From: an uncultured Coriobacteriia bacterium
Lineage (GTDB): Bacteria; Actinomycetota; Coriobacteriia; Anaerosomatales; PALSA-660
Direction: 5' to 3'
DNA length: 64,000 nucleotides
Assembly: GCA_903831865.1 (NCBI GenBank)
Contig: CAIKZH010000156.1
Coordinates: forward strand, 867-64,866
Under the pieces are notes generated by a model that was not told the origin of the DNA, searched no databases, and saw only the letters and a program-made list of their open reading frames with translations. Within the stretch, counting starts at the first letter, position 1. Each line of letters begins with the position of its first letter. A program made the position numbers and the translations under genes. This document shows, one piece after another, positions 1,987 through 59,277 of this stretch.

Positions 1987-2283
1987 CTAGCAGGGCGTGG
2001 CGTCTGGAGTGGCAAGCTGCGGCATCAGGCCGTACTCGGTGAGCCAGTAGGTGACGCCATCGATGACGGTCGGGAAGTAGCGAAGCCCATCTTGCTCGCC
2101 ACCGACAACCACTTCCGGCTGGCTGCCGTTGACTACCTTCGCCAGGAAGAAAGCCTTGGCGGTCTCGTCGATGTCACTGATGGGGTCCACGGAAGCATCG
2201 TACCGCGAGACTCGCGTCGCATCAGACGGCAGACGCCGCGCGCCTACCTGCTGCTCAACAGCAGGAGGTCCTTCGGCCTCCAT
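1987..2283 (-). CDS. Small conserved hypothetical protein (paralog of 46498..46725)
   Basis: Shares the block TA(K/R)AFFL.K...G..PE....GG..DG..YF.....G...LTE.GL with the 75-aa ORF at 46498..46725. The ATG at 2283 lies inside repeat copy 1. An alternative GTG start at 2190 would give a 67-aa product that aligns end-to-end with the paralog. Confidence 0.55.
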   Translation of the reverse strand: MEAEGPPAVEQQVGARRLPSDATRVSRYDASVDPISDIDETAKAFFLAKVVNGSQPEVVVGGEQDGLRYFPTVIDGVTYWLTEYGLMPQLATPDATPC

Positions 2284-2442
2284 ACGTTCTCTACATCCGG
2301 GACGCGCGGCCACCGCGGGCCCCGGGCATGATGTGGATACGGCCACGGACACAGCCGTTCATATCTCCTCCCCTCCCTGCAGGTCCTTTCCGGGACGCCC
2401 CTCCCGAGACGGGCCGACGCCGAACCCGAGGCGTTTCATTAT
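2277..2442. repeat. Copy 1 of a three-copy structured element (candidate sRNA or 5' leader)
   Basis: Aligns by eye with 45722-45903 and 46887-47068. Shared blocks are CATACGTTCTCTACATCCGGGAC, CATGATGTG, GCCGTTCATATCTCC, a C-rich tract and CAGGTCCT.TCCGGGACGCCCCTCCCGA. It has its own hairpin GACGCC/GGCGTT (2416-2435) followed by TTTCATTAT. Confidence 0.75.
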
Positions 2443-2470: not shown

Positions 2471-5422
2471 CTACGGAAGACCCCAAAGCGAGCGGAATCG
2501 GGAACCGATCTGAGCCTGTAGGGCCTGGCTCTTCTGCTCGAGGCGCTCCCGCTCCCGACCCACAGCCGATTGGAGACTCATGCAAACCGAGATGAGGACG
2601 CGAGTATCGGCGGTGATGCCATCGTGGGCCTTCACGCTCTCAGCATCGCCGAAGTCAACCTTCGGAACGGGAAGATCCGCCACGACAGCACTCCCCCGGC
2701 TGAAATAGCCACCTCGGAACGGACTCCCTCTCTTGCGAAGAAAGAACTCGGCGGTGGGTTGATTCAGCAGCGCCAGAATGAACTCAAGCGAGTAGCCTCC
2801 CCTCGGACTGGCGATAGCGACCTCACCCGCAGTTCCGCCAGAGGCAAAGCCGACCCCCTGCAAGTCAATCCCGTACTTGTCCCCAAGCTGGTTGACGGAG
2901 TAGATGATCTTGTTTGGTCGAAAGGCGGTCGCCAATGCCTGGTGACGACCATATCGATAGAACTCCCCCTCGGCGGGGGGCGGAGAAACGCTGCGCTGCT
3001 CGAGGCGTGTTCGATATGCCGATAGGTAGAGCCATGCCCCAGGAAACTCGGCCTGCAACCGCTCGGGGGGAATCGGGACCGCCTCGCCGTTGTCTCCGTA
3101 TTCATACGGGAAGATGACAAGGGCATCAGGTTCCACAGGCAAGTAGGAGTGGATACGAGCGGCCGAGTCCATCAGATAGGGTCTGACTAGCGCTTCCTCG
3201 ACATTCCAAGTCCGGCCATCCCGCTCGAACACGATTGAGCCGCCCAAGGATGTCCACTTCGATATCGGGAACACGTCCTCAGCGCTGGTCTGTATGCCGT
3301 TCACAACGTCCGCGATGTCGCCGAGTCTTTCCGAACCCGAGTGGAGAACCGATAGCATGAGCCGCTCCTCGGGTGTCGAAGGAAGCACCCAAGCCTTCCC
3401 GCCAAGGTCACGAATCAAGTCGTTGTCGAGCGCCATTCCCTTGTCGCTCGGACTCGCAAGCCAAGTCACGTAGTCATCAACCCGCCGGTAGCAGACCAAG
3501 GCCCGGGGCGTTTGGGAAAGGACCAAGCAGCAGACATAGGTCGATCGGTTGTGGAACAACAGCTCATTTCCGAAGTCGACTATTTCCGCAACTACGCCCT
3601 TGCGCGCCAGAAGTTGGCGGATCTTCATCCCTGACTCGATGGTCATCCACTTATTCGGCACAACCATTCCCAAAAGGCCCCCCTCCCTGAGCACGGAGAG
3701 TCCCTTCTCGATGAAGACGAAGTACTTGTCGAATTGTCGATAGGGTGTCGAGTAGGTCGACCTGTAGTAGTCGAACTCCCCCAGGCACCTCGTCTTCATC
3801 TCCTCCGTCTTCATGTACGGTGGGTTGCCCACGACGGCGTCGAAGTTCTCGGCCAGGCTCGTGGCCTGCCAGTCGAGCGGTCGAACGAGGTCCATGCTGG
3901 GCTCATCTTTGTAGTCCGGGCCGACAACCGAGTTACCCCAGACCACGTTGGTATCGAGGTTCGGAAGGATCTTTCGGCCTGGAGGGAGAGTCCCGTGTCT
4001 CTCATCCTCGAGGAGTTTCACCAGCAGACTGAACCTGGCCACCTCGACCGCCGTGTAGTCGATATCAACACCGTAGAGACATGCCTTCAGCAGTTCGCAC
4101 TTCACGGCGAAGCGGAGCCGATAGTCGTTCTCAGGCCGACGGTAGACTGCGACTGAGTCGCCCACACGCTTGAAATAGGCAATTGAAGCGTCAACAAGCT
4201 CGTCGAAAGCGCGAAGGAGGAATCGGCCCGAGCCGACGGCGATGTCTACGATGCGAAGTGCCTTGATGTCGTCATACGAGAGTCCCCCTTCGGGGATGAG
4301 CCCAGAGACTGCCCTCCGAACAATCTCATCCACCAGAGGCTGGGGTGTGGTGACAATCTCCCTGCCCTCGTAAGCAGGCTTGTCCTCCAGGACGATGGGC
4401 CCAGCTGGTCCGCCAGCAAGACGCTTGACCAAGAAGTACTCGTATACCTGGCCCAGGAAGTTCGCATCCAGCACGCTGAAGCTGTATGGCGCCCTAGGAA
4501 GGTAGAGCTCCTCAACGATCTCGAGGAATACGGAAGAGGCCAGCGCGTATTGAGTCTGGATCGGGTCGCGGCCGACATCGAAGAGCCCGGTATTGTATCG
4601 ATCGTCCATTCCCTCAAAGAACCGCCGGATTTCCACCAGATCCTGGCCCTCGGCCACCGAGCGAAGTCTTCCCTCCCCCTCGATTCCGCGATCTTCACAC
4701 ATCCGAACGAAGACCACTCGGTTGATAACCTTCTGGGCCAAGTCATTCACTTCGTCGGCGTGGAGATGTGCATATCTGGCCCATAGGTCCTCAGCAATCT
4801 TGAGGCGCCAGTCGTTCAGTCGATCCATGAACATCTTGTCAATGGGGATAGCATCTCCGGCAGCTGCGCCGAACTTGGTATCAAGAGAACCCTGGGCCAC
4901 AGCCTCCCTTCCGAAGAGCGCGAGAAGCTCATCGAACCTCGACACGAGGTCCTCGCAAGGTATCTCCATGAGCAGACCGACGTTCGCATCGTCGGTCACT
5001 TCTGGAGCGGCGTGAGTGTCGTAGACCCTGAAGTCTCGGAAGTTGGTCAATACCGAAACTGGCAGACCGCCGGTCCAACCGTAGCTACGGACCTGAAAGG
5101 CGCTCTCGCGACTTGTTCGGATGTCAACAGACGGCTTCTTCGCCTCGACGAAGAACCTGCGTACGGATTCAATCCGAAACGTGTAGTCAGGCCTCTTGGC
5201 TGACGTCTCAGTGGGCTGCGACTCCTCCCGGACGACGTCCTTGAGGCTGTTTGGTGCGCCGTGCCCGTTCTCCATGTCCCAGTCGAGGGCCTTGAACAAG
5301 GGATCAATGAACTCCACCCGGGCCTCAGTCTCCGTGTAGCCCAAAGCGGTCGAACAGTATCGATCCTGCTCCGCAAGAAACACCGCCACGCGATCTGCCA
5401 CCACTTGTTTCGCTGTCTCCAC
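2471..5422 (-). CDS. Type IIG restriction enzyme / N6-adenine DNA methyltransferase fusion (Eco57I-like)
   Basis: N-terminal PD-(D/E)xK-like motif (RPDY...VEAKK). SAM motif I (VDIAVGSGRF). Motif IV NPPY (VGNPPYM). Long C-terminal specificity region. Start placed at GTG 5422, which has a G-run upstream and lies 17 nt after the upstream stop. The ATG at 5521 would overlap the upstream gene by 83 nt. Confidence 0.85.
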   Translation of the reverse strand: METAKQVVADRVAVFLAEQDRYCSTALGYTETEARVEFIDPLFKALDWDMENGHGAPNSLKDVVREESQPTETSAKRPDYTFRIESVRRFFVEAKKPSVDIRTSRESAFQVRSYGWTGGLPVSVLTNFRDFRVYDTHAAPEVTDDANVGLLMEIPCEDLVSRFDELLALFGREAVAQGSLDTKFGAAAGDAIPIDKMFMDRLNDWRLKIAEDLWARYAHLHADEVNDLAQKVINRVVFVRMCEDRGIEGEGRLRSVAEGQDLVEIRRFFEGMDDRYNTGLFDVGRDPIQTQYALASSVFLEIVEELYLPRAPYSFSVLDANFLGQVYEYFLVKRLAGGPAGPIVLEDKPAYEGREIVTTPQPLVDEIVRRAVSGLIPEGGLSYDDIKALRIVDIAVGSGRFLLRAFDELVDASIAYFKRVGDSVAVYRRPENDYRLRFAVKCELLKACLYGVDIDYTAVEVARFSLLVKLLEDERHGTLPPGRKILPNLDTNVVWGNSVVGPDYKDEPSMDLVRPLDWQATSLAENFDAVVGNPPYMKTEEMKTRCLGEFDYYRSTYSTPYRQFDKYFVFIEKGLSVLREGGLLGMVVPNKWMTIESGMKIRQLLARKGVVAEIVDFGNELLFHNRSTYVCCLVLSQTPRALVCYRRVDDYVTWLASPSDKGMALDNDLIRDLGGKAWVLPSTPEERLMLSVLHSGSERLGDIADVVNGIQTSAEDVFPISKWTSLGGSIVFERDGRTWNVEEALVRPYLMDSAARIHSYLPVEPDALVIFPYEYGDNGEAVPIPPERLQAEFPGAWLYLSAYRTRLEQRSVSPPPAEGEFYRYGRHQALATAFRPNKIIYSVNQLGDKYGIDLQGVGFASGGTAGEVAIASPRGGYSLEFILALLNQPTAEFFLRKRGSPFRGGYFSRGSAVVADLPVPKVDFGDAESVKAHDGITADTRVLISVCMSLQSAVGRERERLEQKSQALQAQIGSRFRSLWGLP

Positions 5423-5438
5423 GTTCCCCCCGAGTGGC

Positions 5439-7109
5439 CTACTGCTCGACACCCGTCCGCAGTCTCCTGTGCCGCAATCGGCTCCACGCTTGGTGAATGA
5501 CTTCGCGTTCATGTTGTCCAAGACCTACCGCCCGCAGCACCACTTCGTCCTGCTCGACCAGTATTTGGTCCGCTTCCTCGTGTGAGCGTATCCGTCTGTC
5601 GAGATCCGCCAAGCGTCCGGCCCGCGGCTCCACGGCGGGGATGACAAGTCGCTCTATCTCAGACGGGACCAGTTCCAGGACCCCCCCACCGTAGTGCCTG
5701 CCTTCGAGCTCCGCCGTCAGTGCGGTCAGACTGTTCACGAATGAGTAGACGAGCGCCTCGAGAGACGGCGCTTCGGCCTTCGGCTTGATTCGATAGGCTG
5801 TGTCGGTCGTGTAGGCCCCCGCGGTGTTCAGGATGAGGCGGGGGAACACGCTTGACCGCTTCAGCATACCGATTGGCGTCGCATAGACAGACGGGACCGA
5901 GTACCACGGTTCTCGAATCCTGCACTTGTAGCGCTGCGGCAGCCCCTGCGCCTCACCGCGGGCAATGTACGCCTTCGGGCCCTCCGCAAGACTCTCGCTG
6001 GGTTGCGTCCCGAGGGCAACGAAGTTCGCCGGGAGCCCTCGTGCCCGATTAGCTTCGTGCATGGAATCGTCGTAGATGACTCCAGGGCAGTGTTCGCTCC
6101 GTCCGAACATCGGCGCAGTGAACTCCCCGAGGCCGTACTGGCTAACGACACTGTCGTTGACCAAGAAGAACGCATTCGCACCCGTGACGATTCCTACGTC
6201 GACGGTCGCAACATCCCTGAACGCACGCACTCCTGGAAGTTCGATGGCGCTGTCCAAGACCCGGAGTTCATCTGGCGACAAGAGAACCCTCATCCACTTT
6301 CCGCGCAGGACATCCCCGGACAGATACTGGGCATCTCTGAAGACTGGCACAGGGTCCCTGTCCAAGAACGCGTTGTCTGACATAGGGAGCACGCAGACGC
6401 CTTCGGATGCCTCGCCGTCGGTGCGCTTCTTTTCGAGAAGCAGGAGCACCGTCCCTTGTAGGGACTTGTCGAACAGCAGTTGTGCAGGGTCGATGACCAG
6501 AATCCTCTGGCATTGAGCAACTAAGAACTCGCGCAGCGACCCAGCGTGCAGGATATGGAGAATCTCGGCCGGGATGACCATTGCAAGCCGGCCACCGGCC
6601 TCGAGGAGTCCAACGCTGGCAATCACGAACGGCACCCAAGCGTTCGTGTGGCGGGTAAACCGAAGGCTCTGGCGAGCGAAGATCTGCTCCGAGAGCACTT
6701 GGTCTCTTGGTTCGAGGTACTGGTATCGGACATAGGGGGGATTGCCGAGAATGCCACCGAACGTTGCCCCGGCAGACATAGCGTCAAGACTCCACTCGAG
6801 GAAGTCGGCCGTCAGAACATCAGCATTCGCTGCCCAGCCATCGACTGCACGGCGTGACTTAGCCGCTTCCTCCGGCAGCCGCTCCACTCCCAGGAAGTCC
6901 ACATCCTGACGGCCCAGTTCGCGGACTGCCGTGATGAACGCCCCGTCTCCACAACTCGGCTCCAGCAGCGAGGAGGGCCGCGCGCTCAAGACCCACCGCG
7001 CTAGGAAGCGAGCTATCACGTGAGGCGTGTAGTAGCCGCCCCGCAGCTTGGTCGTCGATTCCTCTGCCTTGAATCTCGTGGCCGATCTCCCTGTCAGATG
7101 AGCGCACAC
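5439..7109 (-). CDS. Stand-alone N6-adenine DNA methyltransferase (gamma class, TaqI/Eco57I-M-like)
   Basis: 556 aa. Motif I EPSCGDGAF. Motif IV GNPPY. C-terminal target-recognition-type region. Sits immediately upstream of the Type IIG gene on the same strand. Confidence 0.85.
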   Translation of the reverse strand: MCAHLTGRSATRFKAEESTTKLRGGYYTPHVIARFLARWVLSARPSSLLEPSCGDGAFITAVRELGRQDVDFLGVERLPEEAAKSRRAVDGWAANADVLTADFLEWSLDAMSAGATFGGILGNPPYVRYQYLEPRDQVLSEQIFARQSLRFTRHTNAWVPFVIASVGLLEAGGRLAMVIPAEILHILHAGSLREFLVAQCQRILVIDPAQLLFDKSLQGTVLLLLEKKRTDGEASEGVCVLPMSDNAFLDRDPVPVFRDAQYLSGDVLRGKWMRVLLSPDELRVLDSAIELPGVRAFRDVATVDVGIVTGANAFFLVNDSVVSQYGLGEFTAPMFGRSEHCPGVIYDDSMHEANRARGLPANFVALGTQPSESLAEGPKAYIARGEAQGLPQRYKCRIREPWYSVPSVYATPIGMLKRSSVFPRLILNTAGAYTTDTAYRIKPKAEAPSLEALVYSFVNSLTALTAELEGRHYGGGVLELVPSEIERLVIPAVEPRAGRLADLDRRIRSHEEADQILVEQDEVVLRAVGLGQHEREVIHQAWSRLRHRRLRTGVEQ

Positions 7110-31775: not shown

Positions 31776-32564
31776 TTACGGCCCGAGCAGGCTCGATACC
31801 GTGAACGACGTGATCTTGGAGGCTGACACGTAGTAGCCGTCGAGCGCATCCAACCCGGCCACGAGCGTAATGGTCTGGTCGAAGGAGCTGCTGGGGACTG
31901 AGAAGCCTGCCTGACAGGTGTCGTCATGCGAGATGGTGGTTCCGTAGACCAGCAGCAGAAGGCTGGGAGGGAGTTCGAACGGGTCCCCCAAGGGGCCGAT
32001 CGTTGGGCCGCGCTCCGCGCCGAGCACGGCGAGCGCCGGGGAGGCGGTGGTGATGGCGCCCGCGGGACCCGACATGTAGGCGGAGATCGTCACGAACGCA
32101 TGCCCGTCCGGTTCGAGCGTCGCGGAGGCACCGAGGCTGCTGATGCTCAGCGCATCCTCCAGCACCTCGACTTCTCGGGATGCGGCGTGTGTGGCCTTGG
32201 AGCCGTTGAAGCGCAGCCGATAGTCGCCGCCGCTCAAAGCCAGGAAGCTGAAGTGCCCGGTCTTGGACGAGACGGTGCTGGTCACGTTCACATACTCGCC
32301 GCTGGAGTCGTCCGCGCGGTCCAGGTACACCCTGCCCACGAGTGGTGCGTCCGCCAGCACCTTCCGGTGACTCCTCACGACCACCCTGCGGTAGATGAGC
32401 ACCCCGGCGACCGTGGTGTCGGTGCTGCCTCTCGCGATAACGTATTCGCTCCTCGTCGAGCGGAACGCCGTTGCGGCTTTCGTCGTAGCGAACGCGGACG
32501 TTGGCAGGAGAAGCATCGCCACGAATCCCAGAACGAGTGCCACACCGAGCCAGTGCTTCTTCAT
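31776..32564 (-). CDS. Secreted hypothetical protein
   Basis: Signal peptide MKKHWLGVALVLGFVAMLLLPTSAFA. Beta-rich composition. No family recognised. Confidence 0.6.
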   Translation of the reverse strand: MKKHWLGVALVLGFVAMLLLPTSAFATTKAATAFRSTRSEYVIARGSTDTTVAGVLIYRRVVVRSHRKVLADAPLVGRVYLDRADDSSGEYVNVTSTVSSKTGHFSFLALSGGDYRLRFNGSKATHAASREVEVLEDALSISSLGASATLEPDGHAFVTISAYMSGPAGAITTASPALAVLGAERGPTIGPLGDPFELPPSLLLLVYGTTISHDDTCQAGFSVPSSSFDQTITLVAGLDALDGYYVSASKITSFTVSSLLGP

Positions 32565-32701
32565 CGAGACTCCCCTTGTCAGGCCCTGCCGACTGATCGC
32601 ACACCCGTACTATGAACACGTTCAAGCAGGCGGGGAAGTAACGGACGCCTGACGGGCGGCATCCCAAGGACGAGCTCGCAGAAGGCACGATCCGAGGCGA
32701 C

Positions 32702-33109
32702 TCACGACGGGATGACTGCGATGGCCTCGATCTCGACGAGGTAGTCGGGGTTACCGAGCCCACTCACCATGGCAACGGTCACTGCCGGCGGTTGCGCGTC
32801 AGCCGGCCAGACCTCTCTGAACGCCTCGAATCCAAGCGGGATCGGCTGACCCTCGACGATGAACACGTTCCATTTGATGACGTCTTCGAGCCGCCCGCCG
32901 GCCTCGATCACGGCCGCCTCGACATTCCTGAGAGCCCTCACGGATTGCGCCTTGAGATCACCCTTGCCGACAAGGTTGCCCTCTGAGTCGACGGCGTCCT
33001 GTCCTCCGACGTAGACCGTCTTGACGGGTCCGGCCACCGCGACGGCCTGGGAGTAGGCGGGATTCTTGTGCAGGCCGTCAGGATCGAGATGCTCGATGCT
33101 CGCTTCCAC
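32702..33109 (-). CDS. RidA/YjgF-family reactive-intermediate deaminase
   Basis: 135 aa. Typical blocks VYVGGQ...G.L.G.GD...Q....L.N......AGG.L.DV.K..VF. Confidence 0.85.
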   Translation of the reverse strand: MEASIEHLDPDGLHKNPAYSQAVAVAGPVKTVYVGGQDAVDSEGNLVGKGDLKAQSVRALRNVEAAVIEAGGRLEDVIKWNVFIVEGQPIPLGFEAFREVWPADAQPPAVTVAMVSGLGNPDYLVEIEAIAVIPS

Positions 33110-36409: not shown

Positions 36410-39151
36410 CTAGGCAGGCGCGTCGAGGCTGGCAGCGCCGGGGGCCGACAGCAGGCCTCCCGCGCCTGGCTTCGCCGGCAGTGTCGCGCGCGCTGGAGCG
36501 GACCCGCCATTCGCAGCGTCCGGTTGCAGGACGGAGCGCTCCGTGTACTCCCCCAGCGGGAGCGGCCGCCCCACTTCGTAGCCCTGCGCGAAGTCGGCTC
36601 CGAGGCCCTCTATCGTGTCCAGGAGGCCGGGGTTCTCGACCCACTCGGCCACGGTGCGGATGTCCAGTCCCCTGCACATCTCGATGATGGCCCGCACAAA
36701 GTGCATGTCCGGCGAGTCCTCGTTCAGCCCCTTCACGAGAGCGCCATCGATCTTGAGGAAGTCGATCGGAAGGTGCTTGAGGTAGTAGAAGGACGACGCG
36801 CCGGAGCCGAAATCGTCGAGCGAGAAGCGGCAGCCGATCTCCTTGAGGGCGCCTATGAACTTCTGCGCCCGGGCCATGTCGGCGATCGCCGTGGTCTCCG
36901 TGATCTCGATCACGAGTCTGGAGGGCGAGACACGACGGTTGCGCAGCTCCTCGCGGATGATGTCGAGCAGCTCGGGGTCAGAGAACGCCGCACCGGACAC
37001 GTTGATGGCGAAGACCGTGTCACGCCCGGCGGCCCGCTCCTCGCCCAGCATCCGGATCCCACGCCGGGCGACCCATCGGTCGATGTCGCGTATGGCCCCG
37101 AGTCGCTCGGCAGTGGGGATGAACTCGGCCGGCAGGATGATCTCGCCGTTCTCCGCGATCATGCGGAGCAGCAGTTCATACACGGGAACGGCATTGTCAG
37201 CCAGACGCCGCAGGGGCTGCGCATAGAGCTCGAACCGGTCAGCGCGCAGAGCGCGCCTTATCTCCTCGGCCGTCTCTATCTGCTCGGTCATCCGGCTGCG
37301 CCACAGGTCGTCCTTGGTGTACGCGAAGAAGCGGTCGCCCCCCGTCGTCTTGGCCTCGTACATCGCGAGGTCGGCGCAGGCCATCAGCTCATCGCACGTG
37401 GTCCCGTGGTCAGGGAATCGTGCGATGCCGATGCTGGCGCTCACGCTCACCACATGTCCGGCGGCCGCGAATGACGCTTCGGAGAGCATCTCGAGCAACC
37501 TGGACGCGGTCGCCTCAGCCTGCTCCTCGTCAGCGTGCGGCACGAGCATCCCGAACTCGTCTCCGCCCACCCGAGCCACGGTGCAGTAGTCGCGCGAGTT
37601 CGCCTTGATCATCCGGGAGAAGGCGACCAGGAGATCATCTCCTGCCGCGTGGCCCAGCGAATCGTTCACGTTCTTGAAGTTGTCGAGGTCGAACCACAGC
37701 AGCGCCCCGCTTCCACCCAGGCGCTCCACCTCAGACAGCTCTCTCTCGAGCTCCGCTTCGAACTGCCTGCGGTTCGCCAGGCCCGTGAGGGGGTCATGGG
37801 CCGCGAGATAGCTGAGCTGACTGTGCGAACGGTCAAGCTCCAACTGGATCGACAACACCTGCGCGAGCCCATCGGCCAGCGCGACCGACGTCCTGTCGAG
37901 CTTGCGCGGCGAGGTGAAGTAGAACTCGAGTGTGCCGACGGCCCGTCCTCCGACCCTCAGGGGAACGATCACCCCGGCGTTCGAGGAGCACTGCGGGTTG
38001 GAGCAACCGATCTCGCCTCGGCTGCGCAGGACCTCGCGAGCGTCGTTCCTGATGGCGTCGCGCGTCGCGGTCATGCGTATCGGGCTGCCGGCGGGGTGGC
38101 GGTCGATGCCGACGCCAGCGATGCCTACGACCTGCGTCGTGTCGCACAGCACCACGGTATCGGCGGCGCTGTGTTCCAGGATGAGCCGACAGACATCCTC
38201 CGCGGCTCCTGGATTGAGGCCGTCGCGCAGGCGGTCCATCGAGGCACTGGCCGTATCCAGGATCATTTGCGACTGAAGGGCGCGCAGATGGTCGGGAAGC
38301 ACCATGGTGTCGAGCGTCAGCCCCAGACCGACGACGAGGACGAGCCCGAAGATCCCCAGCGCCGTGCCCCCGCTGAGCACAGCCGTACGGGTCAACGTGA
38401 ACGCCGTGCGAGGCTGCGTGACCCCGGCAACAAGGGCCGGCCGGCCGTCCAGCCCGTGCACGGTCGCGTAGGCGGTCAGCGTGTGTGGAGCCAGCGCAGT
38501 GCCCAGGCGACGGTCCCCTTGGCCAGCAGGCCGCAGGGCCAGCGGCAACTGCGTGAGCTTGCTGATGGCCGCAACACGACTTCGTGACAGAAGGTAGCCG
38601 GTCACCAACAGCCCGTCGTAGGGCGCGGAGCCACTGCTGGAGGAGATGGGCTGAACTGCGAGAAGCAGCGAGCCTGCCGGGAGGTGCAGGGCACCGGAGG
38701 CCGCGACGTTCGGGTCTGTCAGGTGCAGCTTCGGAAGGTGCGACGCCAGGTAGGAACCGAGTCCGGCCGGCAGAGGAACACCGCGGCCCGAGACCGGGTC
38801 GACCGCCTTGGAGAACACGATCCTGCCGCTCTTGTCGGCGAAGACCATGAAGTCGACGTCGAGCACGGCCAGGCTGGCATCAGTGAGGTTGTTGCGCACG
38901 TACGCCTGGTTCCGATCCTGCATGAACCGGTACGTGTCGTCCCAAAGTGCCCAGTCGCCTGTGACGAGCGTGAGCTGCTCGGCGCCGTGGTTGATTTGAG
39001 ACGCGACGCGACTCGCGTCCGCCGCGACGTCGCGCTCGTCGATCTGGTTGGAGACCCGGTCCCCCAGCAGGATGCCGCCAGTCTGCAGCGCCGCCCATAG
39101 CACAACGGCGGTCGTCAGCAGTAGCAGAAACGTCCTTGTCCGAACTCCCAC
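36410..39151 (-). CDS. Membrane sensor CHASE4 + LytS-type GAF + GGDEF + EAL protein
   Basis: 913 aa. N-terminal TM helix. CHASE4-like DWALWDDTYRFMQD. GAF-like ...GTLEFYF. GGDEF (VARVGGDEFGML). EAL domain (YELLLRM...EITE...DDFG). Confidence 0.85.
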   Translation of the reverse strand: MGVRTRTFLLLLTTAVVLWAALQTGGILLGDRVSNQIDERDVAADASRVASQINHGAEQLTLVTGDWALWDDTYRFMQDRNQAYVRNNLTDASLAVLDVDFMVFADKSGRIVFSKAVDPVSGRGVPLPAGLGSYLASHLPKLHLTDPNVAASGALHLPAGSLLLAVQPISSSSGSAPYDGLLVTGYLLSRSRVAAISKLTQLPLALRPAGQGDRRLGTALAPHTLTAYATVHGLDGRPALVAGVTQPRTAFTLTRTAVLSGGTALGIFGLVLVVGLGLTLDTMVLPDHLRALQSQMILDTASASMDRLRDGLNPGAAEDVCRLILEHSAADTVVLCDTTQVVGIAGVGIDRHPAGSPIRMTATRDAIRNDAREVLRSRGEIGCSNPQCSSNAGVIVPLRVGGRAVGTLEFYFTSPRKLDRTSVALADGLAQVLSIQLELDRSHSQLSYLAAHDPLTGLANRRQFEAELERELSEVERLGGSGALLWFDLDNFKNVNDSLGHAAGDDLLVAFSRMIKANSRDYCTVARVGGDEFGMLVPHADEEQAEATASRLLEMLSEASFAAAGHVVSVSASIGIARFPDHGTTCDELMACADLAMYEAKTTGGDRFFAYTKDDLWRSRMTEQIETAEEIRRALRADRFELYAQPLRRLADNAVPVYELLLRMIAENGEIILPAEFIPTAERLGAIRDIDRWVARRGIRMLGEERAAGRDTVFAINVSGAAFSDPELLDIIREELRNRRVSPSRLVIEITETTAIADMARAQKFIGALKEIGCRFSLDDFGSGASSFYYLKHLPIDFLKIDGALVKGLNEDSPDMHFVRAIIEMCRGLDIRTVAEWVENPGLLDTIEGLGADFAQGYEVGRPLPLGEYTERSVLQPDAANGGSAPARATLPAKPGAGGLLSAPGAASLDAPA

Positions 39152-41155: not shown

Positions 41156-42694
41156 ATGAAGCGCCGTATCGTGCCTATCCTCATCGTGGCGTTGTGCGTC
41201 GCGATCCTGCCGGCGGGCGGTGCGCCCGCGATCGCGTCAGCCGCCCCGCATGCCGCCGGCCTTGCGGCAAGCGCATGGCCGATGCTGGGCCACGACCCGA
41301 CCCACTCCTTCACCAGCTCAGTCGCGGGACCCGCGACGCCGCTGAAGAAGTGGGAATCCCCACTCGGGCAGCTCTACAGCCCCTACACCGCGTCTCCCGT
41401 GATCGGGGCGGATGGCACGATCTACATCGCCACCTACTCTCGGCTGTACGCGATCAACCCGGACGGCACACAGAAGTGGCACTGGGTCTCCAAAGACGGA
41501 CTGTACGGCTCGCCCGCGATCGACTCCACCGGCACTGTCTACCTCGGTGGCACGAGTGGTGAGCTCTACGCCGTGAACCCCGACGGCACTCTGAAGTGGA
41601 AGTTCGACACGGGACTGGCAGTGGTGGCCTCCCCGGTGATCGGGACCGACGGCACGATCTATGTCGGCGCCGAGGACGGGCACTTCTACGCCATCAACCC
41701 GGACGGCACCAAGAAGTGGGACTACCTCACTGCCGGCGCCATCGCCTCCTCGGCCGCGATCGACACGACCGGCACGATCTACTTCGGCAGCGGGGACGGC
41801 AAGTTCCATGCGTTGAATCCCGACGGCAGCCAGAAGTGGGTCTTCGCCGCAGCCGGCTCCGCGCAGGGTGCCCCGATACTTGGCAGCGACGGCTCCGTCT
41901 ACTTCGCCGCGACCGACGGCTACTTCTACGCTCTGAACTCGGCCGGGGCGCTGCGGTGGGAAGCGATCGCGGGAAGCGGCTACTACGGCTACTACCCCGG
42001 CCCGTACTACTACCTTGGGACAGCAGCCGGTGCCGTGTCCGCGCTCGCCACAGCGACTCCCTCCATGCTCCTCGTGCCGAACAAGGGCGGCACGAAGCTG
42101 TTGTCGCTGTCTGCCGCCGGCGCCCTGAACTGGTCGTTCGCAGCCACCGATACCGAGTTCTACAACGTGATGCCGCCCGCCATCGACTCGAACGGTGTCG
42201 CCTACACCGGCTCCCTCGGCACCGGCAGGCTCTTCGCGATCAACCCTGACGGCACCGAGAAGTGGCACGCGACACCCGAGCCCCCGGTCTACTATGACTA
42301 CTACTATCCCGTGTCCTCGCCAGTGATCGGTGCGGACGGCACGCTGTACCTGACCGCGCGGGGCGAACTGGTCGCCATCGGCGGCAGCGCCACGTCGGTC
42401 TCGATCCAGGCCAGCAGGAGCACCATCTTCCTGCACAAGTCCGTCGCCTTCTCCGGGTCGGTCACGCCCGGAGTCGCGGGGGACCGTTTCGCGGTCGACG
42501 TGATGCTGCCCGGCAGCCGCAGTTGGACCTACCTCAGCACGCGACTCGCGAGTTCAGTCATCGGCGGTCACGCGAACTGGTCGTACAGCTACACACCGAG
42601 GAAGCGCGGCGCCTACCACTTCCGCGTGAGATTCCTCGGCGATGCGACCGGCGCGATGTCGGTGTCGTCATCGGTGAGAGTTCGAGTGCAGTAG
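41156..42694 (+). CDS. Secreted PQQ-like (BamB-type) beta-propeller repeat protein with C-terminal Ig-like domain
   Basis: Signal peptide. At least seven repeats of G..YA.NPDGT.KW......(S)SPVIG.DGTIY. Confidence 0.8.
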   Translation: MKRRIVPILIVALCVAILPAGGAPAIASAAPHAAGLAASAWPMLGHDPTHSFTSSVAGPATPLKKWESPLGQLYSPYTASPVIGADGTIYIATYSRLYAINPDGTQKWHWVSKDGLYGSPAIDSTGTVYLGGTSGELYAVNPDGTLKWKFDTGLAVVASPVIGTDGTIYVGAEDGHFYAINPDGTKKWDYLTAGAIASSAAIDTTGTIYFGSGDGKFHALNPDGSQKWVFAAAGSAQGAPILGSDGSVYFAATDGYFYALNSAGALRWEAIAGSGYYGYYPGPYYYLGTAAGAVSALATATPSMLLVPNKGGTKLLSLSAAGALNWSFAATDTEFYNVMPPAIDSNGVAYTGSLGTGRLFAINPDGTEKWHATPEPPVYYDYYYPVSSPVIGADGTLYLTARGELVAIGGSATSVSIQASRSTIFLHKSVAFSGSVTPGVAGDRFAVDVMLPGSRSWTYLSTRLASSVIGGHANWSYSYTPRKRGAYHFRVRFLGDATGAMSVSSSVRVRVQ

Positions 42695-44163: not shown

Positions 44164-45693
44164 GTGTGCGGGGTGAGGCCGCGTGCAAGCGGCGCGGCTC
44201 TTGCAGCAGTGTCGCTGGCGTTGATGGCCGGACTGCTGCCCGAAGGGCGAGTGAGCGCACTGAGCGACGACAGAGGATTCCCGCGCGGCGGCGCGCGACG
44301 GTCCGACCGCCATGAGGCGAAGCGGGCGCCTGCGAAGCCGCCGCGACCCCTGCGGTCGCCCGTCGATCCCGCAGCACCGCGATCCGAATCTCGGCGCGCA
44401 TGGACCACCTACGACCCCGGGGCCAGACGCCGTCGGCGACTGGGCAGGCTCGCGCTCGTCGGTCTCGTCGTCGCGCTGCTGGCCGTCATCGGCGGAGGTG
44501 CGGCCTTCGCCTGGTACCGCACCATCGACCGCAACATCCACCCGGTCACCGGCTCGCTCGCCAACCTTCAGTCGGCTCTCTCGGTAGCACCGCCGCCGGG
44601 TCAGCCCTTCTACATGGTGATCATGGGCGTGGACACGAGAGCCACCGACACCTCGCTCGATCACTCGGACACGCTGATGGTCGCCTACGTCGATGCCGCC
44701 CGCAAACGCATCACCACGATGTCCATCCCGCGCGACACCCGAGTGACCATCCCGGGCCACGGCGTGCAGAAGATCAACGCGGCCATGTCGATCGGTGGGC
44801 CTCAACTGACGATCGAGACGGTCAGACAACTCACCGGCCTGCCGATCTCGCACTGGGCCTACATCGACTTCAGCGGGTTCAAAACCATCGTGGACGCCGT
44901 GGGCGGCGTCGAACTCTACGTGCCCTACACCATCAACGACCTGGAGGCGTCGGGTAACCATCCGAGCGCCAGGCTGGTCAAGAAGGGGCTGAGGGTGCTC
45001 GACGGTGCGCATGCCCTCACGTTCGTGCGCGCCCGCCATCAGTTCGCGAACCAGGACTACACCCGCATGAAGGACCAGCAGATCTTCATGAAGGCACTCG
45101 CGAAGAAGGTCCTGTCGGTCAATGTCATCAACATGCCGGCGCTCGCCAACAGCATCTCGCAAAACGTGCACACCGACCTGAGCATCCCGCAGATCGTCGG
45201 GCTGGCCCTCAACTTCCGAGGCATGAACGACAAGATGCTGCAGTCGATCACGATGCCGAGCACCCCGCAGACGATCGGCGGGGTGGCCTACGTGATCGCG
45301 GACCCCGCGGGCCTCGCGGCCGATGCGGCCAAGATGCAGAGAGGCGAGCTGTTCGTCGCGGTGCCCGCGAGTGTCACGGCGAACCCGACCGCGGCGTCCG
45401 TCGCTCCTGCCCCCAAGACCATCACGGTCTCGGTGCGCAACGGGGCCGGCGTGAGCGGGATCGCCAAGAAGGTGGCGGCGGCACTGGCGAAGCAGGGCTT
45501 CGTCATCAAGGAGGTGGGCAACATCGGCTCCTCTCCCTTCGCCACCTCACTGGTCATCTATCGCTCGAGTGCCGACAAGGCCAAGGCGGATGTGGTCGCC
45601 AAGGCGTTGCACATCACGAACATCCAGGCTTCGAGCCGCTACACGTTCTCGGGCGAAGTGCTCGTGGTGATCGGCAAGGACTACCGACCGTAG
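44164..45693 (+). CDS. LytR-CpsA-Psr (LCP) family cell-envelope phosphotransferase with LytR_C domain
   Basis: TM anchor. MGVDTR...SDT.M......ITTMSIPRDT...KIN.A...GGP...I..V..LTG.PI.H...IDF.GF. C-terminal ITVSVRNGAGVSGIA. Exact start uncertain. Confidence 0.85.
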   Translation: MCGVRPRASGAALAAVSLALMAGLLPEGRVSALSDDRGFPRGGARRSDRHEAKRAPAKPPRPLRSPVDPAAPRSESRRAWTTYDPGARRRRRLGRLALVGLVVALLAVIGGGAAFAWYRTIDRNIHPVTGSLANLQSALSVAPPPGQPFYMVIMGVDTRATDTSLDHSDTLMVAYVDAARKRITTMSIPRDTRVTIPGHGVQKINAAMSIGGPQLTIETVRQLTGLPISHWAYIDFSGFKTIVDAVGGVELYVPYTINDLEASGNHPSARLVKKGLRVLDGAHALTFVRARHQFANQDYTRMKDQQIFMKALAKKVLSVNVINMPALANSISQNVHTDLSIPQIVGLALNFRGMNDKMLQSITMPSTPQTIGGVAYVIADPAGLAADAAKMQRGELFVAVPASVTANPTAASVAPAPKTITVSVRNGAGVSGIAKKVAAALAKQGFVIKEVGNIGSSPFATSLVIYRSSADKAKADVVAKALHITNIQASSRYTFSGEVLVVIGKDYRP

Positions 45694-45721
45694 CCGCAGC
45701 GCTTCCGGCGGGCGCCGGCGA

Positions 45722-45903
45722 CCTCCATACGTTCTCTACATCCGGGACACGCGGGCGCCACGCGCCCCGGACATGATGTGGATACGGCCGATGTGATCGC
45801 CGTTCATATCTCCCCCCTCCCCGCAGGTCCTATCCGGGACGCCCCTCCCGAAGGACCACCCAAAGCGGCGGGACCCGCCCCGGTCCCGCCGCTTCCCCCT
45901 TTG
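45722..45903. repeat. Copy 2 of the three-copy structured element
   Basis: See 2277-2442. Contains the perfect hairpin GCGGCGGGACC[CGCCCC]GGTCCCGCCGC (45865-45892) followed by TTCCCCCTTTG. Confidence 0.8.
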
Positions 45904-46000
45904 TGCCGTCAGGCGTCCCGCCAGCCAGGAAGTCCGCCAGGCCTGCTTTCAAGTCCGCGCACGACGGTGCATGATCGGTGGGTGTCCGAAGGAGGCGCGC

Positions 46001-46725: not shown

Positions 46726-46886
46726 GCCCTCCGCCCCCTTCCGCGTGCTGACCCGGATCCTTCCTGAGCGCGCGCCCCGGGTCGTGATGCTCCATGCATG
46801 CGTATCGTAGACCCAGGTCGAGGCCTCGGGCAGCCATCACTCTGCCGAAAGGGGGGGCTTGCAGCCGGCCGACGCGAGACGGTGGA

Positions 46887-47068
46887 CTCCACACGTTCTC
46901 TACATTCGGAACACGATGCCGCCACCGGGGCCGGGCATGATGTGAGTGCGGCCATGCGATCGCCGTTCATATCTCCTCCCCCTCCCCACAGGTCCTATCC
47001 GGGACGCCCCTCCCGAAGGACCACCCAAAGCGGCGGGACCCGCCCCGGTCCCGCCGCTTCCCCGTTTC
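46887..47068. repeat. Copy 3 of the three-copy structured element
   Basis: Reads identically to copy 2 over 75 nt (caggtcc...gcttcccc), including hairpin 47030-47057. One nt shorter than copies 1 and 2 inside the mini-ORF. Confidence 0.8.
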
Positions 47069-47218
47069 TTGGAGGCCCCTCCAACCGGGTAACGCACGTC
47101 CACCGTGCTCCTCACGGGAGCATGGCCAGCGTCAAGACCCCGGCTCGCCGGGATGGCCGCAGCACGCGGAGGGCGTCGAGACCCTGATCCACGCGTCGCG
47201 CTCGATCAGACGGCCTCC

Positions 47219-47261
47219 TTGACAATCGCTAGGCGCCTAGGTAATATCACTAGGTACCTAG
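47219..47261 (+). promoter_or_regulatory. Near-consensus sigma-70-type promoter overlapped by two palindromic operators
   Basis: TTGACA (47219-47224), a 17-nt spacer, TAATAT (47242-47247). Palindromes CTAGGCGCCTAG (47229-47240) and CTAGGTACCTAG (47250-47261). AGGAG lies before GTG 47281. Confidence 0.65.
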
Positions 47262-47280
47262 CTATTGCGACAGGAGCCCC

Positions 47281-47721
47281 GTGGAAACCCCGACAGCACA
47301 TCCCGAGTACCTCTCATACCGTGTCAAGCGGGTCTACCTGCTCCTCAGCCAGCGCATCGACGATGCGCTGAAGCCGTATGGGATCGCGCGCAGTCAGTGG
47401 CAGGTCCTCTCCCGCGTGTCGCGTGCCGGCACGCTGGCACAGAAAGACCTCCAGCACGCGATGTGCGTCGAGTCCGCCACGCTGACAGGGATCGTCGACG
47501 TCCTGGCGGCCAGGGGCTGGTTGGTGCGGACCGAGAGCGCGGACGACAAGCGCGTGCGCGTGCTCTCCCTCACCGCCGAGGGCCTTGCGCGCCTCCAGGC
47601 CGTCCCCGATCCATACAAGCTCGTGGAGACACGCATGCTGCATGGCGTTCCCGACGACGAGCGCACGCAGGTGCAGGCGACGCTCGAGACGCTGATCCAC
47701 AACCTCGAAGATCGGAGCTGA
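47281..47721 (+). CDS. MarR-family transcriptional regulator
   Basis: 146 aa. SQWQVLSRVSRAGTLAQKDLQHAMCVESATLTGIVDVLAARGWLVR...DDKRV is a wHTH. Confidence 0.85.
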   Translation: METPTAHPEYLSYRVKRVYLLLSQRIDDALKPYGIARSQWQVLSRVSRAGTLAQKDLQHAMCVESATLTGIVDVLAARGWLVRTESADDKRVRVLSLTAEGLARLQAVPDPYKLVETRMLHGVPDDERTQVQATLETLIHNLEDRS

Positions 47722-47729
47722 CCGTTCCA

Positions 47730-49049
47730 GTGCCCACCCAACCGCAGTCGATAAGCCCGAGCGCCCCCCTGAGCCTGAAGCAGCGCGTGCATCACACGTT
47801 CTCGTCGCTCAAGGTGCGCAACTACCGGCTGTTCTTCATCGGGCAGACGATCTCGCTGTGCGGCACGTGGATGCAGTCCATCGCGCAGGCGCTGCTGGTG
47901 CTCAAGTTGACCAACTCCGGGATCGCGCTGGGACTCGTGGTGGGACTGCAGTGCGCACCGGTGCTGCTGCTCGCCTCCTACGGCGGCTTGCTGGCGGACC
48001 GCTTCCCCAAGCGGAGACTGCTGCTGATCACTCAGTCGTGCGCCGGCGTACTCGCCCTCACTCTGGGCATCCTGGTGGCCACCGGATCGGTGCAGCTGTG
48101 GATGGTCTACATACTCGCGTTCGGGCTGGGCGTCGTGAACGCCGTGGACAACCCGGTCAGGCAGACCTTCATCCACGAGATGGTCGGACGCTCTCAGCTG
48201 ACCAACGCGGTCACGCTGAACTCACTCATCGTGAACATGAGCCGAGTGGTGGGACCGGCCATCGCCGGCGTCATCGTCGCGCAGTTCGGTCTCGCGCCGT
48301 GCTTCGTCGTCAACGGACTCTCCTTCGGAGCCGTGCTGGGCTGCCTCTATCTCATGGACGGCCGCGCCCTGATGAAGTCCGAGCCCGTCAAGGCCGCGAA
48401 GGGACAGCTGCGCGCCGGCTTCAGCTACGCTTGGAAGACGCCGGCCGTTCGCGACGTGCTGCTGATGATGGCGCTGGTGGGAACGCTCACCTACGAGTTC
48501 GTGGTCTCGCTCCCCCTGCTCGCCCACGTCACGTTCCCCGGCACCGAGGCGCAGGTCGCGGCGGGCGTCGCACTGCTGATGGTCGCGATGGGCATCGGAG
48601 CCGTGGTCGGCGGCCTCTTCACCGCAAGCAGGATGACCGCATCGTGGCGCACTCTCACCATCGCGTCCTTCGGTTTCGGGGCGGGGATGGTGATCGTGGC
48701 GCTCTCGCCTTCCCTCATGTGGGCGGCCGCGGCCATGGTCGTCGTCGGGTTCTTCTCGGTCCCGTTCACGTCGCTGACGAACAGCCTGCTGCAGCTTGCA
48801 GCGGCAGCTCGGATGAGGGGACGCGTGATGGCGCTGTGGACGATGGCCTTCATCGGCTCCACCGTGATCGGCGGACCCATCATCGGATGGGTGGGGCAGA
48901 GCGCGGGCCCGCGTTGGGGCCTCGTCGTCGGCGCCGCGGCCGCGGTCGCTGCGGGCGGGATCGGCGTGCGTGTCATGCGCCGCCGCAGCCGCGAGGCAGT
49001 GAGCACGCTGCCTGGCAGCGTCCCGGACCAGGAGCGGCTGCCGGCGTAG
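47730..49049 (+). CDS. MFS transporter (EntS/MFS_3-like)
   Basis: ORF 47265..49049 trimmed to GTG 47730, 9 nt after the MarR stop. About 12 TM helices. FSSLKVRNYRLFFIGQTIS is a typical N-terminus. Confidence 0.85.
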   Translation: MPTQPQSISPSAPLSLKQRVHHTFSSLKVRNYRLFFIGQTISLCGTWMQSIAQALLVLKLTNSGIALGLVVGLQCAPVLLLASYGGLLADRFPKRRLLLITQSCAGVLALTLGILVATGSVQLWMVYILAFGLGVVNAVDNPVRQTFIHEMVGRSQLTNAVTLNSLIVNMSRVVGPAIAGVIVAQFGLAPCFVVNGLSFGAVLGCLYLMDGRALMKSEPVKAAKGQLRAGFSYAWKTPAVRDVLLMMALVGTLTYEFVVSLPLLAHVTFPGTEAQVAAGVALLMVAMGIGAVVGGLFTASRMTASWRTLTIASFGFGAGMVIVALSPSLMWAAAAMVVVGFFSVPFTSLTNSLLQLAAAARMRGRVMALWTMAFIGSTVIGGPIIGWVGQSAGPRWGLVVGAAAAVAAGGIGVRVMRRRSREAVSTLPGSVPDQERLPA

Positions 49050-51403: not shown

Positions 51404-53362
51404 TTGAGGATATGGGCCTGGGCGGCCGCACTACTGCTCACCACTGCGCTCGCAGTGTGGGGGATGCTCGCCGGCGTCACGTCCGTGGCGCTGGTCGCCG
51501 TCTTCGTTCTGCTGGGTCTGGCCGTGGTCCCGATCCTGGGGCTGCGGTTCGACAGGGCGGCCGCCGAGGTCGCGATACCCGACAAGACCCGCGCACAGCA
51601 GTCGAAGTCGATCCTGGACATCGCCCGGGAGTCGATGAGCTGGATCGGCTCCGGGCTCACCCCGGAGTCGGCCGCCGCCGTGTGCGCCCTCATCCAGCGT
51701 GACACCGGCGCTGCCGCGGTGGCGATCACGGACCGCGAGAAGGTGCTGGGGTTCCAGGGTGTGGCCGCCGACCATCACAAGGTGGGCGGTCCCATCGTCA
51801 CCCAGGCCACCAGGGACGCCATCGCCCGCAACGAGCGCCGGATCATGGTGGATCGCGACGAGATCGGCTGTCCCGACCCCAAGTGCCCTCTTCGCGCGGC
51901 CATCGTCGTCCCGCTCACCGCGGGTGATCAGGCGATCGGCACCCTGAAGTTCTACTACACCGACCCGAAGGATCTGCACGAGACGGCGATCGTGCTGGCC
52001 GAGGGCCTCGCGCACCTGTTCTCGACGCAGCTCGAACTCGACAGCTCGAGAAGAGAGCTCTCGTTCCTGGCGGAACACGACCCGTTGACCGGGCTCAGCA
52101 ACCGCCGAAGGTTCGAGACGGAACTCTCGAAGGAGCTCTCGGAACAGCGAAGGCTCGGCGGCGCCGGTGCGGTGCTCTGGTTCGACCTGGACAACTTCAA
52201 GGACATCAACGACAGCCTGGGGCATGCGGCCGGCGACCAGCTGCTCGCCACCATCGCCGAGGTCCTGCGCGAGACCAGCCGCAGCTACGACGTCGTCGCG
52301 CGGCTGGGGGGCGACGAGTTCGGCGTGCTCATCCCGCACGCGGACCGCGCCGAGGCCACCCAGGCCGCCGCGCGCCTTCGGCGCGAGCTTGCCTCCCACG
52401 CGTTCCACGTCGTGGGCCAAGAGGTGCACGTCACCGCGAGCATGGGGATGGTGTGCTACCCCGAGCACGGGCAGTGCCGCGAGGATCTGCTGGCCCGTGC
52501 CGACCTCGCGATGTACGAGGCCAAGGGCAAGGGCGGCGACGAGCTCATCATCTACGAGCCCGGCGAAGCCGGACACGACCAGATGTCGAAGAACGCCGAG
52601 TGGGCGAGCGCGATCTCCTCGGCGCTACGCGACGATCGCTTCTGCCTGGACGCGCAGCCGATCCGCAGCCTCGTCGGAGGCACGGACGTCGCGTACGAGA
52701 TGCTCCTGCGGATGGTGGGGGAAGACGGGCAGCTGGTGGACGGCGACGAGTTCCTCCCCGTCGCCGAGAGGACTGGGCTCATCGGAGGCATCGACCGCTG
52801 GGTGGCGCGAAGAGCCATACAGCTTCTGGCCGAGGAGAAGGCGCAGGCACGGGACACCGTGCTCGCCATCAACGTCTCTCAGCACGCGTTCGCCGACCAC
52901 GCTCTGCTCGACATCATGCGTGTAGAGTTCGCTTCCACCGCGGTGGCCCCGAGCAGGCTCATCGTCGAGATCTCAGAGTCGGCGGTCGTGGCGGACATCA
53001 CGGGAGCGGCGGAGTTCGTCCGCTCCCTCCGCGAGCTGGGTTGCCGGTTCGCGCTGGACCATGTCGGCTCCGGCAGTTCGCTCTTCTTCTACCTCGAGCA
53101 CCTTGGAGCCGACTTCCTCAAGTTCGACAGCGACCTGATCAAGGGCCTGGAACGCGACGGTGGTCCCACCGACGCGGCGTTGATCCGGGCCCTGGTGGGG
53201 ATGTGCAAAGCCATGCGGATCCCCACGGTCGCTGAGTCGGTCGGGAACGCGAACCTCCTGCATGTGGTCGCCGCCCAGGGCGTCGACTACGTGCAGGGCG
53301 AAGAGGTCGGGCCGGCGGCGTCGCTCGGCAGCCAGGCCGCAAGCGGACCGATCGTTGCCTGA
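51404..53362 (+). CDS. Membrane LytS-type GAF + GGDEF + EAL protein (paralog of the C-terminal two-thirds of 36410..39151)
   Basis: Two N-terminal TM helices. GAF-like ...IGTLKFYY. GGDEF (VARLGGDEFGVL). EAL (YEMLLRM...EISE...DHVG). TTG start at 51404 is uncertain. Confidence 0.85.
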   Translation: MRIWAWAAALLLTTALAVWGMLAGVTSVALVAVFVLLGLAVVPILGLRFDRAAAEVAIPDKTRAQQSKSILDIARESMSWIGSGLTPESAAAVCALIQRDTGAAAVAITDREKVLGFQGVAADHHKVGGPIVTQATRDAIARNERRIMVDRDEIGCPDPKCPLRAAIVVPLTAGDQAIGTLKFYYTDPKDLHETAIVLAEGLAHLFSTQLELDSSRRELSFLAEHDPLTGLSNRRRFETELSKELSEQRRLGGAGAVLWFDLDNFKDINDSLGHAAGDQLLATIAEVLRETSRSYDVVARLGGDEFGVLIPHADRAEATQAAARLRRELASHAFHVVGQEVHVTASMGMVCYPEHGQCREDLLARADLAMYEAKGKGGDELIIYEPGEAGHDQMSKNAEWASAISSALRDDRFCLDAQPIRSLVGGTDVAYEMLLRMVGEDGQLVDGDEFLPVAERTGLIGGIDRWVARRAIQLLAEEKAQARDTVLAINVSQHAFADHALLDIMRVEFASTAVAPSRLIVEISESAVVADITGAAEFVRSLRELGCRFALDHVGSGSSLFFYLEHLGADFLKFDSDLIKGLERDGGPTDAALIRALVGMCKAMRIPTVAESVGNANLLHVVAAQGVDYVQGEEVGPAASLGSQAASGPIVA

Positions 53363-58790: not shown

Positions 58791-59197
58791 CACTTGTAGC
58801 CGGCCGGCCACTGCTGCAGCGTCCACAGGTTGCCGTCGGGGTCCGAGAACCACGCGTAGAGGACGCCGCCGAGGTCCTGGACCTCGGCGATATCGATCCC
58901 CCGCTTCACGAGCGCACCGCGTGCCTCGTCCATGTTCTCCACAACCAAGTGCAGACCTTTGACCGAGCCGGGGACCATCTCGTTGATGGGCCCCATGCCG
59001 GTCCCGAACACGATGGCGCACGACGAGCCGGGCGGCGTGAACTGGACCACTCGCATCGTATCGCTCATCTGATTGTCGTGGAGGTTGCCGAACCCGACCT
59101 GCTCGTAGAACACCTTGGCGCGCTCGACGTCCGTCACAGGGATGGGAACGAGTTCGAGTCTCATATCGGGCACGGGGATCGAGGTCCAGTCGGGCAT
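58790..59197 (-). CDS. VOC (glyoxalase/bleomycin-resistance) family protein
   Basis: ORF 58790..59305 trimmed to ATG 59197 (GGAGG upstream). IPVTDVERAKVFYE.VGF...DPDGN.W. Confidence 0.8.
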   Translation of the reverse strand: MPDWTSIPVPDMRLELVPIPVTDVERAKVFYEQVGFGNLHDNQMSDTMRVVQFTPPGSSCAIVFGTGMGPINEMVPGSVKGLHLVVENMDEARGALVKRGIDIAEVQDLGGVLYAWFSDPDGNLWTLQQWPAGYK

Positions 59198-59277
59198 CGG
59201 GGTGCCTCCTTCAGGAGTGTCGCAACGCTGCTCAGGGTTCGTACCCGCGACGGCGGGCGAGCGGCCGGGGCGCAACG

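Follow-up and report, generated by a model that had tools for sequence, protein, structure and literature searches.

Related small RNAs

The closest described systems to the element treated here are small RNAs that expose C-rich sequences. In the cuckoo/CcsR RNAs, two to four adjacent hairpins each carry the anti-Shine-Dalgarno (anti-SD) motif CCUCCUCCC in the loop, according to passages of one report (PMC4615179). Parts of that report and of a second (PMC8034643) describe several copies per genome, co-transcribed from the untranslated region (UTR) of a gene encoding a small DUF1127 protein and with a terminator at the end. For high-G+C Gram-positive bacteria, an excerpt of PMC6486639 describes the 6C RNA as binding mRNAs through C-rich loops without chaperones, and small RNAs with C-rich loops from Streptomyces appear in the portion of PMC3765725 drawn on here.

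The element occurs three times in the 64,000-nucleotide stretch of an uncultured Coriobacteriia genome that was analysed (the window) and a fourth time elsewhere in the same genome (G000; 2.16 Mb, 192 contigs, 67.8% G+C, estimated 96% complete). A first-pass annotation had read the minus strand of two of the window copies as a small open reading frame (ORF) of 23 codons. With a probability of roughly 0.75, this mini-ORF is not a selected gene but the minus-strand spelling of a plus-strand, non-coding, UTR-derived element. The element itself is a real plus-strand RNA module derived from UTRs, uncatalogued in that it has no Rfam match and confined to one family, and we infer a regulatory role for it. 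The features are given below; R1 is a covariance model built from the 3' part of the element (C-rich tract, hairpin H2 and terminal hairpin).

2278..2442, plus strand: W1, short copy; 5' box 2278-2295, variable GC region, C-rich tract 2360-2383, H2 approximately 2382-2415; R1 match 2338-2447, 40.4 bits
2416-2442, plus strand: terminal part of W1, with its own, different terminal hairpin plus UUUCAUUAU
45723..45902, plus strand: W2, short copy; 5' box 45723-45740, C-rich tract 45805-45827, H2 approximately 45826-45857, terminator-like hairpin 45862-45902; R1 match 45781-45905, 71.7 bits
46887..47063, plus strand: W3, short copy; 5' box 46887-46904, C-rich tract 46968-46992, H2 approximately 46991-47022, terminator-like hairpin 47027-47063; R1 match 46950-47070, 72 bits
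2291..2362, minus strand: mini-ORF copy 1 (in W1), 23 codons and TAG; judged a by-product
45736..45807, minus strand: mini-ORF copy 2 (in W2), 23 codons and TAG; judged a by-product
46900..46970, minus strand: mini-ORF copy 3 (in W3), 1 nt shorter; the frame of the ATG misses the TAG and continues to 99 codons

Read on the plus strand, the element runs from a 5' CU-rich box through a variable GC region and a C-rich tract to H2, with its YGCCCC loop, and then to a terminator-like hairpin. The 5' module comprises the box (CUCCAY-N4/5-UCUCYACA), P1 (a GC-rich stretch of variable sequence) and P2, a hairpin based on UGCGGC. In the 3' module, the C-rich tract (CAUAUCUCCUCCCCUCCCUGCAGG in W1), which is predicted to be single-stranded between hairpins, is followed by H2 (GGUCCY...GGGAYGCCCCUCCC...RGGACC), which presents the loop, and a strong terminator-like hairpin.

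No Rfam family matched the window at gathering score. At E<=1, the C-rich and H2 part matched solely C-rich small RNAs, all in plus orientation and all far below threshold. The best of these, Scr3202 (RF02833), scored 33 bits against a cut-off of 52 (E 0.25, on locus L006, plus orientation), followed at a distance from their own cut-offs by CcsR1 (22.4 against 65.3), ar14 (25.5 against 58.8) and sX13 (23.8 against 50). The 6C model (RF01066) matched none of 13 element-bearing loci at E<=1, nor the window at gathering score, and neither the window nor any element-bearing locus contains the exact motif CCUCCUCCC. The element thus lies below the gathering cut-offs of Scr3202, CcsR1 and ar14 and outside each family in all membership tests run, and is therefore filed as an RNA working like these rather than as a member.

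The likeness to cuckoo/CcsR and ar14 (RF02791, RF02344) lies in the C-rich, anti-SD-like motifs, in the modular hairpins with a terminator-like end, in the location in the UTRs of a small-protein gene (here SHOCT-like, in three genomes) and in the several paralogous copies at different loci. Unlike those RNAs of Alphaproteobacteria, the element lacks CCUCCUCCC, has a SHOCT-like and not a DUF1127 partner gene, belongs to a host from a high-G+C lineage, and combines one hairpin with a C-rich loop (H2) with an unpaired C-rich tract. A hairpin with a C-rich loop beside a terminator is also found in the actinobacterial small RNAs 6C and Scr3202, and chaperone-independent G-C pairing with mRNAs, as set out for 6C in the excerpt of PMC6486639, may be a further point of likeness. 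Compared with both of these RNAs, the element has a greater length, a 5' module and a link to the UTRs of a protein gene.

Copies in the window and their neighbours

The copies are homologous. A core of about 104 nt is repeated at 2274-2377, 45719-45822 (84%) and 46883-46986 (66% ungapped), and copies 2 and 3 have an additional 97-nt stretch in common at 95% identity. The UUUCAUUAU that follows the terminal hairpin of W1 is found on the plus strand only.

W1 is located between a gene for an Eco57I/MmeI-like restriction-modification protein (2474-5521, minus strand) and a small minus-strand ORF. W2 begins 30 nt after the stop codon of a LytR_cpsA_psr/LytR_C gene (44164-45693, plus strand) and is followed by a DinB-like gene, and W3 is upstream of an MFS transporter gene (47265-49049). 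The product of 2474-5521 is a 1016-aa Eco57I/MmeI-like type IIG protein (Pfam Eco57I at 6.6e-34, N6_Mtase and HSDR_N), and its gene ends about 25 nt from the terminal hairpin of W1.

A promoter scan of both strands at the three loci returned none attributable to the element, nor were promoter-like hexamers evident within the 5' box or ahead of it. The sole sigma70-like match near the elements, at 47219-47247 on the plus strand (TTGACA-17-TAATAT, 10/12), is between W3 and the MFS gene and belongs to the latter. A strict terminator scan of both strands at the same three loci called no terminator. Since the T-tails of the big hairpin are, by eye, only slightly richer on the plus side, the hairpin may be bidirectional. 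The 5' box (2278-2295, for example) reads as two CUCCAC-like words 11 nt apart; it might act as single-stranded RNA, as a site of processing or as a site to which a protein binds. A loose form of the box pattern, used as a regulon motif, found the four element copies and six unrelated matches.

Distribution and link to a small-protein gene

Of the 15 genomes in the family, 10 have full-length matches to R1, with four copies in G000 and one in each of the other nine. Among 146 genomes of the order, R1 found nothing convincing outside the family; the sole outside match, L035 (32.9 bits), shares only a C-rich word and a hairpin. An exact-pattern scan of metagenome contigs yielded 14 loci, all 14 of them confirmed by R1. 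With a looser pattern, R1 matched none of 80 contig loci among the matches listed.

The fourth G000 copy, which is the canonical one, is on contig C172 at approximately 32205-32727 (L012:1051-1624), and there the halves of the element are about 340 nt apart. The insert is an 86-aa ORF (L012:1219-1479) on the strand opposite to that of the mini-ORF, with a GGAGAGGAGG tract before its ATG. A sequence identical to this copy is present on metagenome locus L158. The modules flank a plus-strand ORF in three genomes from two genera, with products of 86, 63 and 103 aa in G000 (C172), G001 and G014, and these proteins are homologous across the genera (E 5e-20 and 3e-12). Against Pfam SHOCT (PF09851), they score 19.5, 26.6 and 26.6 bits, respectively, with E values from 5e-6 to 8e-4; the curated cut-off is 27, and because the scores fall under it, the protein is named SHOCT-like. 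It is small (63-103 aa) and has a hydrophobic N-terminal stretch.

In seven further genomes (G002, G004, G006, G007, G008, G009 and G013), there is no ORF, and a non-coding spacer joins both modules. Relatives from the same genus have one longer copy each, of about 230 nt. The short copies, namely W1-W3 and a fourth on metagenome contig L156 from another organism, have only about 30 nt between P2 and the C-rich tract. These short copies look like deletion derivatives of an ORF-bearing copy because they share words with the ORF-bearing versions: CAUGAUG and CAUAUCUCC, as well as GGUCCUUUC...GAAGGACC with G001. ORF-containing and ORF-less versions together form a series. On the preferred reading, which is probable, the element represents the two untranslated ends of the mRNA for a small SHOCT-like membrane protein. 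The ORF is still in place between the modules in G000 (C172), G001 and G014; it has been deleted in the seven genomes, with both modules kept, and the three ORF-less short copies in the window lie at new loci in G000.

A different origin can be considered, in which the element is a dispersed, structured intergenic repeat like REP/BIME, BOX or ERIC, serving mainly as a (bidirectional) terminator or mRNA-end stabiliser, with no role in trans and with C-rich tracts that are incidental or used for spreading. The element does resemble such repeats in being short, structured, intergenic, present at several loci and sometimes placed between convergent genes. The four G000 copies are at unrelated loci, a fifth copy (the short one on L156) is at yet another locus in a relative with about 90% identity, and the big hairpin is convergent to the 3' end of the neighbouring gene both at W1 and in L156; the absence of TIRs and of Rfam family matches would also fit. 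However, the copy number is one to four per genome, with a single copy in each of the nine other genomes that have a full-length match, which is unlike REP-type families, and palindromic unit structure is absent as well as TIRs. Each genome has one syntenic canonical copy, which in five of the eight loci tested comes after an EamA-family gene of the same orientation, and the element corresponds to the UTR pair of a protein gene. In addition, conservation is higher in the single-stranded C-rich tracts and the loop of H2 than in the stems, a pattern that a mere terminator would not need. An origin as a terminator-type repeat is thus unlikely, and the UTR-derived reading is preferred.

The L156 copy follows a gene (L156:213-640) that is 91% identical to a G000 homologue in the window (58796-59219, minus strand). 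The latter is directly followed by another ORF, with no element behind it, so that element presence varies between close relatives. Synteny between L156 and G000 ends right after the shared gene, and hence no insertion boundaries or target duplication are readable.

The 23-codon frame

The features that had drawn attention to the mini-ORF are mostly present as described. On the minus strand, W1 and W2 encode MNGCVRGRIHIMPGARGGRASRM and MNGDHIGRIHIMSGARGARVSRM, both with Met-TAG at the end, and the L156 copy also has a 23-codon frame, MNGCVQGRIHIMTGRHGGPVSGM. A GGAGGAG or GGGGGAG tract ends 2 nt upstream of the ATG, with its GGAGG core 4 nt upstream. W3 is indeed shorter by one nucleotide (68 nt from ATG to TAG, compared to 69 nt), for which reason its frame runs on for 99 codons. 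Three consecutive codons differ between W1 and W2 at third positions alone (gcc cgc ggt and gcg cgt ggc). In three of the four short copies, then, the frame is intact and of the same length, with an ATG, an SD-like tract and a Met-TAG end, and in its start codon, SD-like tract and short frame it resembles leader peptides and other translated small ORFs. These features are what would speak for a frame translated as a leader or regulatory micropeptide, with W3 as a decayed copy.

The mini-ORF shows no coding signal. The first-pass annotation had suggested that substitutions between copies are biased towards synonymous change, and the tallies over the whole frame contradict this: by codon position, the differences number 4/5/4 (W1-W2), 3/5/5 (W1-L156) and 6/7/2 (W2-L156), and the corresponding ratios of synonymous to non-synonymous changed codons are 3:6, 2:7 and 1:9. 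Values of dN/dS (Nei-Gojobori, NG86) are 0.71, 0.56 and 4.37 for the same three pairs, and in a control the same bases read in another open frame gave similar pS/pN. The three codons with third-position changes alone represent a selective choice from the 13 differences between W1 and W2. They fall in P1, the variable GC region, for which the predictions for W1, W2 and the L156 copy give different inner stems and loops.

Conservation of the peptide is similarly poor. Between intact copies, 6 to 10 of the 23 residues differ, and among the four short copies the body of the ORF is the least conserved segment of the element (72-82% identity, compared to 95-100% for the 5' box and 92-100% from the C-rich tract through H2). 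One of these four copies, W3, is frameshifted. None of 20 distinct family sequences other than the W copies keeps the 23-codon frame; read from the corresponding ATG on the minus strand, their frames vary in length between 1 and at least 57 codons, and two of the 20 lack that ATG. A search of the homologues for an intact frame together with synonymous excess thus found the frame in three of four short copies and in none of the 20 others, and no excess. Nor is an open frame of 23 codons beyond chance in G000: at 67.8% G+C, 35,665 of its 48,749 ATG triplets (73%) open at least 23 codons.

The surroundings of the frame also differ from those of a leader, since no downstream gene is conserved. W1 and W3 are followed on the minus strand by ORFs that show no relationship to one another, the first credible ORF beyond W1 begins about 400 nt away, and a 186-aa frame downstream of W1 mostly looks non-coding; a leader with a common downstream gene was rejected for these reasons. 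From W2, the minus strand runs antisense into the 3' end of the plus-strand LCP gene. A plus-strand frame starting at CAUGAUG was likewise rejected; by eye, it is open in W1 and closes after seven codons in W2.

The letters of the mini-ORF can instead be traced to parts of the plus-strand element. Its ATG is the complement of the CAU that precedes the C-rich tract, and in G000 and G001 this CAU comes directly after the stop codon of the SHOCT-like gene. Its TAG corresponds to a CUA on the plus strand of the 5' box, created by a C-to-U change common to all four short copies. On this reading, the GGAGGAG taken for an SD sequence is simply the complement of the C-rich (anti-SD) tract. Judging from the sequence, the mini-ORF would then span, on the wrong strand, the junction between the former 5'UTR and 3'UTR of the gene. 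Of the two explanations offered in the first-pass annotation, the one that saw the pattern as a by-product of a GC-rich hairpin re-registering between copies proves essentially right: the codons in question are in P1, and the "SD" mirrors the C-rich tract on the opposite strand. The other explanation, in which a leader or regulatory peptide is translated and one copy has decayed, is very improbable: there is no synonymous excess, the frame is the least conserved segment and is missing from all 20 relatives, the downstream ORFs are unrelated, and the strand is opposite to that of the ancestral gene.

Predicted structure and strand

The 3' part of the element has a structure supported by covariation. 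In 22 distinct family sequences aligned to the model, the CCCUCCC core of the C-rich tract is kept in all 22, 99.1% of cells are paired, and there is compensatory change at 11 of the 25 pairs, such as GGUCCC/GGGACC compared to GGUCCU/AGGACC, and GGGA/UCCC compared to GGAA/UUCC. All measures of the 3' structure are above those of 500 out of 500 shuffles and of all slid controls. Because the sequences are closely related and the alignment was fitted to the model, the covariation is support and not proof. The single-stranded C-rich tracts and the loop sequence of H2 are more conserved than the stems.

The strand can be judged from two observations. On the plus strand, there are 24 G.U cells versus 1 A.C cell, although 15 of the 24 trace to one pair in sequences that are close relatives. 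The direction in which the SHOCT-like ORF reads argues more strongly for the plus strand. Folding energy was rejected as a criterion: the minus strand is more stable in all nine whole elements, as is its P1 in 15 of 17 sequences, but the advantage vanishes after composition control, which equalises the strands (mean z -1.02 versus -1.13). For P2, the plus strand is the more stable in 12 of 17 sequences and the minus strand in 3, with 2 ties, and the z-scores of P1 and P2 are modest.

Transcription of the minus strand might also be imagined, with an antisense RNA to the UTRs of the SHOCT-like mRNA forming a type I toxin-antitoxin-like pair with the small hydrophobic protein. The size of that protein (63-103 aa), its hydrophobic N-terminal stretch and the stable folding of the minus strand are in keeping with such a pair. 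However, the modules are kept in the seven ORF-less genomes and in the short copies, where nothing is left to antagonise, the asymmetry between G.U and A.C cells favours the plus strand, and no minus-strand promoter was seen at the three loci. An antisense role therefore deserves hardly any weight, and the plus-strand reading is preferred.

Possible function

By analogy with the C-rich RNAs described above, it may be, tentatively and with the odds somewhat against it, that the plus-strand transcript or a processed piece of it is a C-rich anti-SD riboregulator. Such an RNA would need no chaperone to pair with G-rich ribosome-binding regions, in the manner of 6C and cuckoo/CcsR. Hfq was not found by Pfam in G000 (estimated 96% complete). 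A crude scan for sites complementary to the C-rich tract gave a raw count of 116 with at most two mismatches, a few of which are directly before long open frames (C51:1504 and C66:640, for example); these sites are not counted as support.

A more speculative extension, which we consider doubtful, is that the UTRs of a small membrane-protein mRNA became a free-standing, duplicating C-rich anti-SD riboregulator. The series of ORF-containing and ORF-less versions would then represent stages in the conversion of an mRNA into a family of small RNAs, and the element would be a counterpart of cuckoo in a high-G+C lineage in which no Hfq was found. Should ribosome-binding sites prove to be targets of the C-rich tracts, this would be an independent, non-proteobacterial example of the cuckoo/CcsR arrangement and a tractable case of the birth of a UTR-derived regulator.

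For the annotation of small proteins, the result is a safeguard against a false call: where genomes are GC-rich, C-rich RNA motifs readily give rise to short open frames with SD-like tracts on the opposite strand. Moreover, the origin of an uncatalogued RNA element is here readable directly from genomes, which show both UTRs of a small-protein gene persisting after its loss and later increasing in copy number.

Other observations

A Pfam search of G000 (estimated 96% complete) gave no match to WhiB. The window contains several other repeats. At 41442-42268, a 120-nt unit is directly repeated four to five times (D1 and D3; 61-88% identity), which probably reflects 40-residue repeats within a protein gene, and at 60817-61515, there are three direct repeats with a period of 309-312 nt (D4; 60-73%), probably copies of a domain within a single protein. 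A set of inverted repeats (I1-I3; 42-196 nt, 70-84% complementarity) is located at 36725-37395 and 52479-53149, about 15-16 kb apart; these look like diverged paralogous genes in opposite orientation.
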